A DNA stretch of 64,000 nt from Escherichia coli O157:H7 (GCF_013167455.1 NZ_CP038328.1), one strand, 5' to 3'. Shown: positions 24,793 through 25,266, numbered from the stretch's first letter. Notes: generated by a model not told the origin, from the sequence alone. Made by a program: numbers and translations.

Positions 24793-25041
24793 TTAGCGAA
24801 CAAACCACTCGTCAGCAGACTCCCAGGTATCTTTCAGCGTCTCCTGAACAAAAGTTTTAGCTGAATCTTTATCGGCGGTGCGCGTAACAGAAAGGCCATC
24901 GTTGCTGGTGGCTTTTACGATCACCTCTACATCGTCATAACGTTTACTGATGCGTCGGGTTAATTCTTCCTTTAACGCATCCACAGCACCGTTTGGCATT
25001 TTAGTGATTTTTTCTTTAGCGATACAGATCTCAACACGCAT
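24793..25041 (-). CDS. DinI-family protein (SOS-response modulator homolog) carried at the prophage end
   Basis: 82 aa; similarity to E. coli DinI (MR.E..IAK..., TWESAD.WFV); GGAGGG RBS 6 nt upstream of the ATG. Confidence 0.8.
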
Positions 25042-25056
25042 AACACCCTCCTGTAA

Positions 25057-25072
25057 CTGTAGTTATGTACAG
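25057..25072 (-). promoter_or_regulatory. Candidate LexA (SOS) box CTGT-N8-ACAG immediately upstream of the dinI-like gene
   Basis: Minus-strand CTGTACATAACTACAG located between the presumed promoter and the RBS; a second imperfect CTGT-N8-CCAG lies at 25086-25101. Confidence 0.4.
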
Positions 25073-25266
25073 GTGTTATTTTTATCTGTATGGATAACCA
25101 GTGTCAATTCCTGATATTGTTTATGGGGCATCAATGGGGCATGTATGGGACACTTTTTATCGGCGAAATTCGTCGAAGTTCATCGACATGGTAAACGAAT
25201 CATCTATCCAACCCTTGAAAAACGGCGCTCCTGGACGATCTTCGTCGATTTTTAAAAATGTTGCGT

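Follow-up and report, generated by a model that had tools for sequence, protein, structure and literature searches.

We analysed a stretch of 64,000 nucleotides from Escherichia coli O157:H7 (GCF_013167455.1, NZ_CP038328.1), referred to here as the window, in which a dinI-like gene lies on the minus strand close to one end of a Shiga toxin 1 (Stx1) prophage. The late region of this prophage (VT1-Sakai / Sp15 / CP-933V) occupies the window from position 1 to about 25286. The rest is chromosome, beginning with the truncated 5' end of mlrA/yehV (25266-25334, minus strand; yehV' in GenBank record AP000400.1), where the MALYTIGEVALLCDINPVTLRA reading frame is visible in the sequence, and continuing with btsS/yehU. 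The insertion site of the prophage is mlrA/yehV, and its att core, a misc_recomb feature of AP000400.1, maps to 25267-25286. The dinI-like open reading frame (ORF) separates the integrase/att module from the tail-fibre genes and lies about 225 bp inward of attR, in agreement with the att-proximal placement given in the initial annotation, which had been made from the sequence alone. Over positions 24440-25300, AP000400.1 and 238 E. coli records show 100% identity with the window.

The coding sequence (CDS; H0001 / Z3305 / WP_001261937.1) occupies 24793-25041 on the minus strand, starts with ATG and ends with a TAA stop at 24793-24795. As had been predicted, it encodes 82 amino acids and belongs to the DinI family, matching Pfam PF06183 with E = 1.2e-19 and 70.8 bits against a gathering score of 24.2, over profile positions 1-63 of 63 and residues 16-80 of the protein. 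In E. coli K-12, dinI belongs to the SOS genes that LexA represses, and its product binds to RecA filaments. The chromosomal K-12 gene (b1061) falls in the same Pfam family, and its 81-residue product is 45% identical to the 82-residue prophage protein across the full length, with conservation of the segment TWESAD(D/E)WFV (TWESADDWFV in K-12 DinI). The solved DinI structures 1GHH and 7YWA are likewise 45% identical (E = 1.1e-12, residues 1-81), and sequence comparison indicates that the acidic C-terminal helix is shared. The protein, named 'DinI-like family protein' in RefSeq, is a paralogue and not the orthologue of chromosomal DinI. Among 37 distinct copies of the CDS, diversity at codon positions 1, 2 and 3 was 0.011, 0.007 and 0.10, respectively, and this roughly tenfold lower diversity at the first two positions therefore points to strong purifying selection on the protein. 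This class of CDS was found in 1691 of 5426 complete E. coli genomes (~31%), with one to five copies per genome and two to five in O157:H7 strains.

Upstream of the gene, the minus strand carries, in order, a perfect -35 hexamer TTGACA (25107-25102; TTGACA or TTGATA in related loci), a LexA box (box 2), a -10 region, a further LexA box (box 1), the Shine-Dalgarno sequence GGAGGG and the ATG. Box 1, ACCTGTACATAACTACAGTT on the minus strand (25055-25074), has its CTGT-N8-ACAG core at 25057-25072, exactly where the initial annotation had located it; it ends 13 nt before the ATG and overlies the predicted transcription start. The minus-strand sequence of box 2 (25084-25103) is CACTGGTTATCCATACAGAT; its core, CTGT-ATGGATAA-CCAG at 25086-25101, has a CTGG half-site, and the box fills the spacer between the -35 and -10 elements. 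According to a promoter scan, which gave 10 of 12 consensus matches, the -10 region (25084-25078) is either TAAAAA with a 17-nt spacer or AAAAAT with an 18-nt spacer. Box 1 begins 3-4 nt past the -10 element and the centres of the two boxes are 29 bp apart. The Shine-Dalgarno sequence, read directly from the DNA, lies at 25046-25051, 4 nt before the ATG. At this predicted consensus promoter, the two-box arrangement would block RNA polymerase.

The initial annotation had proposed that the boxes be scored with a LexA matrix. We scored every 20-mer on both strands of the window (~128,000 positions) with a heterology index (HI), in which lower values lie nearer the consensus. The matrix draws on 29 classical LexA operators of E. 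coli, among which that of K-12 dinI alone was verified in the sequence. Box 1 (HI 7.01) ranked first in the window, and box 2 (HI 9.07), which corresponds to the second, degenerate box noted initially, ranked third; these ranks were unchanged when the K-12 dinI operator was dropped from the matrix. Both boxes match the E. coli LexA consensus TACTGTATATATATACAGTA within the range of HI 1.0-9.3 that the training operators span on their own matrix. In 200 random windows of the same dinucleotide content, 0.025 sites per 64 kb were found at HI <= 7.01 and 0.085 at HI <= 9.07, and a pair 20-40 bp apart occurred in 0 of the 200. The bare CTGT-N8-ACAG motif has four occurrences in the window where 0.73 would be expected, the other three at 10-17 kb, far from the dinI locus, so that on its own it is weak evidence and the full 20-mer score is needed.

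The second-ranked site of the scan, the strong LexA-like box AACTGGATAAAATTACAGGG (47683-47702, HI 7.25), lies 7 nt 5' of an ORF encoding a 242-residue WGR-domain protein (46947-47675, minus strand) just downstream of metG. This position (molR/yehG) is a reported LexA target and serves as an internal positive control, so the scan appears to pick up real sites.

The gene and its proximal operator were already on record. In AP000400.1, the VT1-Sakai sequence deposited in GenBank in 2000, H0001 is annotated as 'DNA-damage-inducible protein I', a misc_binding feature 'LexA protein, putative SOS box' maps to 25055-25074 and thus to box 1, and a 'putative promoter of H0001 and H0002 genes' maps to 25079-25107; box 2 is unannotated. 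The initial annotation had treated the gene and its SOS box as unnoticed, and this part of it does not hold. Its central proposal, a prophage-borne DinI-family gene behind LexA-type operators, is supported by the family match, the operator scores, the promoter geometry, comparative footprinting and the depositors' own SOS-box annotation. A prophage dinI behind two LexA-type boxes is a real, conserved and ordinary known feature. The supplements of Tree et al. (2014) and Asadulghani (2009) contain no entry for Z3305/ECs2939. Two preprints that seemed relevant were set aside: the 'bully phage' preprint describes a mechanism based on Cro and not DinI, and the radioresistance preprint is about the chromosomal copy of dinI, which lies between yceP and pyrC. 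EcOnc27 (PMC12711010), located 3' of stx2, has no relation to the present locus.

We compared the locus with 80 IMG/VR loci whose proteins are 95-100% identical, of which 52 had enough upstream DNA and yielded 22 distinct upstream sequences. The block consisting of TTGACA, box 2, the -10 element, box 1 and the Shine-Dalgarno sequence is kept in 21 of the 22 variants, in at least four unrelated far-upstream contexts. Most copies have a perfect CTGT-N8-ACAG in both boxes (HI 1.1-5.7), and box 2 in the sister cassettes is perfect with HI 3.4-5.7. The conservation of the block from promoter through CDS to the hairpin downstream of the gene, while both flanks vary, is the pattern that characterizes a phage 'moron'. 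In addition, six more divergent phage dinI loci (42-76% protein identity) all have a box with HI 2.4-7.6 that ends 13-19 nt before the ATG. Two boxes are present in 1720a-02 (76% identity; HI 4.97 and 3.12), PhiR12_2 (68%; HI 3.73 and 5.53) and BP-4795 (61%; HI 9.76 and 7.6, the same weak allele as in the window), and one box in Klebsiella P18-100 (71%; HI 2.64), Klebsiella ST13-OXA48phi12.4 (51%; HI 2.89) and Gifsy-1 (42%; HI 2.36).

The conserved block extends into the 3' untranslated region (3'UTR). The 66 nt past the dinI stop are near-invariant in 36 variants and include the invariant stem GGCUGG/CCAGCC (24772-24767 / 24733-24728, minus strand); the next element, the hairpin, is variable, some of its changes being compensatory, and farther downstream the loci have nothing in common. 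The 3'UTR has a diversity of 0.040, compared with 0.10 for third codon positions in the CDS. The terminal hairpin, at 24723-24695 on the minus strand in the window, is supported by three compensatory pairs in RNAalifold. In the common alleles it folds with -19.0 and -16.6 kcal/mol and is followed by a U-run, as in a good intrinsic terminator, whereas in the window allele it reaches -9.1 kcal/mol and is followed by CUUUCCUU, a poor U-run. A strong hairpin of the form CCGGAG-loop-CUCCGG followed by UUUUGUG lies further downstream (24437-24468; -19.7 kcal/mol, z-score -5.1), convergent with the tail-fibre genes. In the window allele this putative terminator is probably the real 3' end of the dinI transcript, and transcripts probably read through the intervening pseudogene to reach it, which is also implied by the single promoter that the depositors assigned to H0001 and H0002. 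In the mlrA-integrating lineage, operators and terminator are thus both weakened and the protein is intact.

The intervening pseudogene is a decayed ykgJ-like sequence of the CxxCxxCC family (24436-24656, minus strand) that contains the annotated ORF H0002 (24436-24636). An intact ykgJ-like homologue in locus L016 encodes 109 amino acids, begins 136 nt downstream of dinI and matches Pfam PF03692 with E = 5e-11. H0002 has no Pfam match of its own, and a tblastn alignment spans residues 5-38 only (70.6%). AP000400.1 carries the note 'similar to E. coli K12 YkgJ' for H0002, and RefSeq annotates no gene there; we read this ORF as a fragment of the ykgJ-like pseudogene. In 1720a-02 (L085:1249-1360) and BP-4795 (L088:496-600), the dinI stop is followed directly by the ykgJ-like 3' end (...NEACNRARAKYG...), a deletion having taken out the 3'UTR/att element and most of ykgJ.

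This att element has been described before. According to Nakamura et al. (2021, PMC8112680), attB-in-PP_2 is a 96-bp attachment site inside prophages, and its flanks of 184 and 29 bp share homology with the ykgJ/ecpE spacer. The authors name Sp15, the prophage at mlrA in Sakai, as a carrier, and in strain FRIK944 they report a lambda-like phage integrated into the mlrA Stx1 prophage (PMC8112680). In FRIK944, homology with the window stops just after the hairpin and NleG-type genes come next, which confirms the integration at the sequence level. The three reported segments add up to 309 bp (184 + 96 + 29) against a chromosomal spacer of 312 nt. The 96-bp site should therefore correspond to about 24689-24784 on the minus strand, boundaries we infer to within a few bases, so that attB-in-PP_2 is the same DNA as the dinI 3'UTR and hairpin; by the same arithmetic, the 29-bp flank is the spacer before ykgJ and the 184-bp flank is dinI-derived. 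The conservation of the 3'UTR is thereby explained.

In BLAST searches, 5245 of 5426 complete E. coli genomes also proved to contain an unannotated segment of about 157 nt that matches the 3' end of dinI together with the 3'UTR and the hairpin. It sits in the ecpE-ykgJ spacer of the core chromosome, 5' of ykgJ (L090:2465-2776), and homology across the spacer extends to about 307 bp, corresponding to 24544-24850 of the window. Within this chromosomal copy the att-like element is 95% identical and the flanking pseudo-CDS 84% identical; the latter retains two collinear, frameshifted fragments of prophage-type DinI (residues 34-55, E = 3e-6; residues 65-80, E = 2e-4). The published account (PMC8112680) mentions dinI 0 times and infers the origin of the sequence from the chromosomal ykgJ/ecpE spacer. 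The dinI pseudogene suggests the reverse direction, with the chromosomal ykgJ locus as an old relic of a prophage end and not the source of the phage sequence, which would be a minor new point.

Several known systems resemble this cassette in part. The K-12 dinI operator, ACCTGTATAAATAACCAGTA, is the positional homologue of box 1, beginning with ACCTGTA and lying near the ATG. However, K-12 dinI has a single operator that overlaps the -10 element 19 nt from the ATG, and its terminator follows after a 3'UTR of about 15 nt. The prophage cassette differs in its promoter, in the presence of two operators (13 and 42 nt from the ATG) and in the 66 conserved nucleotides that precede its hairpin. In the Gifsy prophages of Salmonella, a LexA-box promoter drives a dinI homologue, the product of which builds up upon mitomycin C treatment (Lemire et al. 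2011, PMC3121763), and Gifsy dinI homologues, with HI 3.9-5.3, are induced 4.6-23-fold by nalidixic acid (PMC8072944). As here, dinI is the first gene behind the LexA box in the dinI-gfoA/gftA-irsA operons of Gifsy-1, -2 and -3. The Gifsy DinI differs in having 77 residues (~42% identity), a single box at 19 nt and a location in the nin region. In Gifsy-1, dinI is followed by a 73-residue ORF at the antirepressor position and then by a 200-residue protein, neither of which is present here; Klebsiella ST13-OXA48phi12.4 has a similar nin-region order, with a 63-residue ORF and a DUF1367-annotated counterpart of the 200-residue protein. H0002 was considered as a remnant of irsA and ruled out, being a decayed CxxCxxCC/YkgJ sequence where the irsA position in Gifsy-1 holds the 200-residue nin-region protein. 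Klebsiella pneumoniae dinI shows LexA occupancy by chromatin immunoprecipitation, and a small RNA (sRNA), DinR, is cut from its 3' end (PMC10907235). The Klebsiella gene is LexA-controlled, as predicted for the prophage cassette, and likewise has an extended lineage-specific 3'UTR before its terminator, but we noticed no sequence similarity between DinR and the prophage 3'UTR, nor any ftsZ complementarity in the latter. Finally, phage 186 Tum (split in PSP3 and Fels-2) is a LexA-controlled phage gene with a DinI-like module (PMC3121763); Tum is a 146-residue fusion whose N-terminal half is an antirepressor, whereas the Stx1-prophage protein consists of DinI only.

We consider it quite probable that the locus is a small, autonomous lambdoid-prophage 'moron' in which a strong sigma-70 promoter, kept off by LexA through two operators, precedes a DinI-family gene and its 3'UTR with hairpin. 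As long as the DNA of the lysogen is undamaged, RNA polymerase would be blocked by LexA dimers bound to box 2, between the -35 and -10 elements, and to box 1, over the transcription start. After DNA damage, RecA filaments would stimulate self-cleavage of LexA, the promoter would open and the 82-residue protein would be made. By homology with E. coli DinI, this protein would use its conserved acidic C-terminal helix to bind RecA filaments, altering both their stability and their activity as a co-protease. The 3'UTR doubles as the attB-in-PP_2 attachment site for other lambdoid phages. The analysis shows the sequence features, their statistical excess, their conservation and the family assignment; that LexA binds, that the gene responds to SOS, that the protein binds RecA and that the phage is affected in any way is what we infer. 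Leakier or earlier expression would be expected from the window allele because both its operators (HI 7.0 and 9.1, against 1.1-5.7) and its terminator are weakened. The initial annotation had also suggested that DinI could feed back on induction of its own prophage. This is speculative, and a large effect is argued against by Gifsy-1 and Gifsy-3, in which neither the level nor the rate of induction changed significantly when the LexA-controlled dinI homologues were removed by non-polar deletion (PMC3121763), an imperfect comparison because Gifsy induction runs via antirepressors and not via repressor cleavage.

Some observations weigh against the 'moron' reading. The protein scores 71.6 bits against NCBIfam DinI equivalog NF007893, under the cut-off of 111, and functional equivalence with chromosomal DinI is therefore not established. 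Absolute HI values from the matrix of classical operators are approximate, and a literature search by locus tag found no binding or expression data for Z3305/ECs2939. The boxes of the window allele are the weakest among the 22 upstream variants, with a CTGG half-site in box 2 and poor flanks in box 1, and BP-4795 is worse still, with an ACAA half-site (HI 9.76) in place of ACAG. Since the boxes are degenerate in both, the hold of LexA on the gene may be loosening in the lineage that integrates at mlrA. An alternative is that the operators of the window allele are decayed relics, with constitutive or leaky expression from TTGACA, or some other silencing, and the gene effectively outside the SOS regulon; the decayed terminator would fit as well. 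We regard this as improbable, given that HI 7.0 and 9.1 still lie within the accepted E. coli range of 1.0-9.3, that two operators at one promoter can offset individually weak sites and that the allele is 100% conserved in the 238 records. It is also unlikely that the cassette is mainly a passenger of the integrase/att module, kept as a recombination substrate, with a DinI protein of little fitness value. The coincidence of the 96-bp att site with the 3'UTR and hairpin would suit a passenger, as would the integrase gene directly upstream of dinI in 1720a-02, the lack of an induction phenotype in the Gifsy deletions and the chromosomal relic, which keeps the att-like element (95%) next to a dinI pseudogene. 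However, the first two codon positions are about tenfold less diverse than the third, and the two-operator promoter is kept even where the 3'UTR is missing, in PhiR12_2 and 1720a-02; taken together, this indicates selection on the expressed protein.

The 3'UTR could also owe its conservation to a LexA-controlled sRNA cut from the dinI mRNA in the manner of Klebsiella DinR (PMC10907235). The element has the shape of a stem-loop plus terminator. The 3'UTR is 2.5 times less diverse than the third positions of the CDS, and the chromosomal relic has kept 95% identity in this element against 84% in the flanking pseudo-CDS. We nevertheless judge such an sRNA very improbable: the element has no Rfam match, its sequence was not found in the searchable literature or, by locus tag, in the supplements of Tree et al. 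(2014), its predicted pairing with the ftsZ initiation region does not exceed that of dinucleotide shuffles (~62-64% of which do as well or better), its fold has a z-score of only -1.4, and it is absent from the more divergent cassettes. Moreover, its conservation is already accounted for by att function. An induction module of the Gifsy type, in which a LexA-controlled operon would encode dinI and then a small antirepressor that inactivates the prophage repressor, shares with our locus a first gene of the same family and a LexA-box promoter of the same kind. The comparison ends there, since the intact version has no ORF of at least 35 codons in the 136-nt spacer between dinI and the ykgJ-like gene, the downstream gene is of the CxxCxxCC type and not the 200-residue protein of the irsA position, the cassette lies at the att end and not in the nin region, and the ykgJ-like protein has no match in Salmonella phages. 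A Gifsy-type antirepressor operon is thus effectively refuted by the anatomy of the prophage cassette.

If the 'moron' reading is correct, Shiga-toxin prophages add SOS-timed copies of a RecA modulator, two to five per O157 genome, and in principle Stx phages exposed to antibiotics could then be induced, and toxin released, at a different threshold or time. A bolder extension would have SOS transcription through attB-in-PP_2, here the gene's own 3'UTR and leaky terminator, gate the integration of other lambdoid phages into this Stx1 prophage and their excision from it, with the two to five dinI paralogues tuning RecA co-protease activity and so setting the order in which co-resident Stx prophages are induced; we find this highly doubtful, and a regulatory RNA from the conserved 3'UTR would be a weaker variant of the gating idea. 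No new question is opened by the locus itself, since GenBank has carried annotations of the gene, the SOS box and the promoter from 2000 on, experiments in Salmonella have established that LexA controls prophage dinI homologues, and the only deletions available show no induction phenotype. What is added is incremental and mainly of interest to specialists in prophage evolution, namely the second operator, the weakened allele in the mlrA-integrating lineage, the identity of the dinI 3'UTR with attB-in-PP_2, the dinI pseudogene in the core ecpE-ykgJ spacer and the monocistronic organization of the cassette, which is not a Gifsy-type operon.

Between the dinI promoter and the att core we also found short repeats, at 25123-25144, 25164-25186, 25236-25248 and 25252-25291. 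ATGGGGCAT occurs twice at 11-nt spacing in the window and as four tandem copies in BP-4795 (L088), CGAAnTTCnTCGA is present in three copies, and the att core itself is spanned by an imperfect palindrome of 23 nt. These repeats, which abut the dinI promoter, may be arm-type and core-type sites of the integrase.

Elsewhere in the window, an ORF for a ClpP-like protease/major-capsid fusion (7926-10097, 723 residues) is intact, whereas the EDL933 copy is interrupted by IS1203, and the IS1203 present between yehQ and yehR in EDL933 is absent. These insertion sequence differences indicate that the window comes from a different O157 strain, despite the 100% identity at the dinI locus. A duplicated zor/orz type I toxin-antitoxin locus lies between yehL and yehK (35721-36740), with OrzO-P antitoxin RNAs on the minus strand at 35721-35796 and 36332-36405 (Rfam, 99.9 and 88.8 bits) and, opposite them on the plus strand, two toxin ORFs of 29 residues at 36042-36131 and 36651-36740. 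In addition, an ordinary thiamine pyrophosphate (TPP) riboswitch is located at 60946-61042, 5' of thiM/thiD (Rfam, 71.2 bits).

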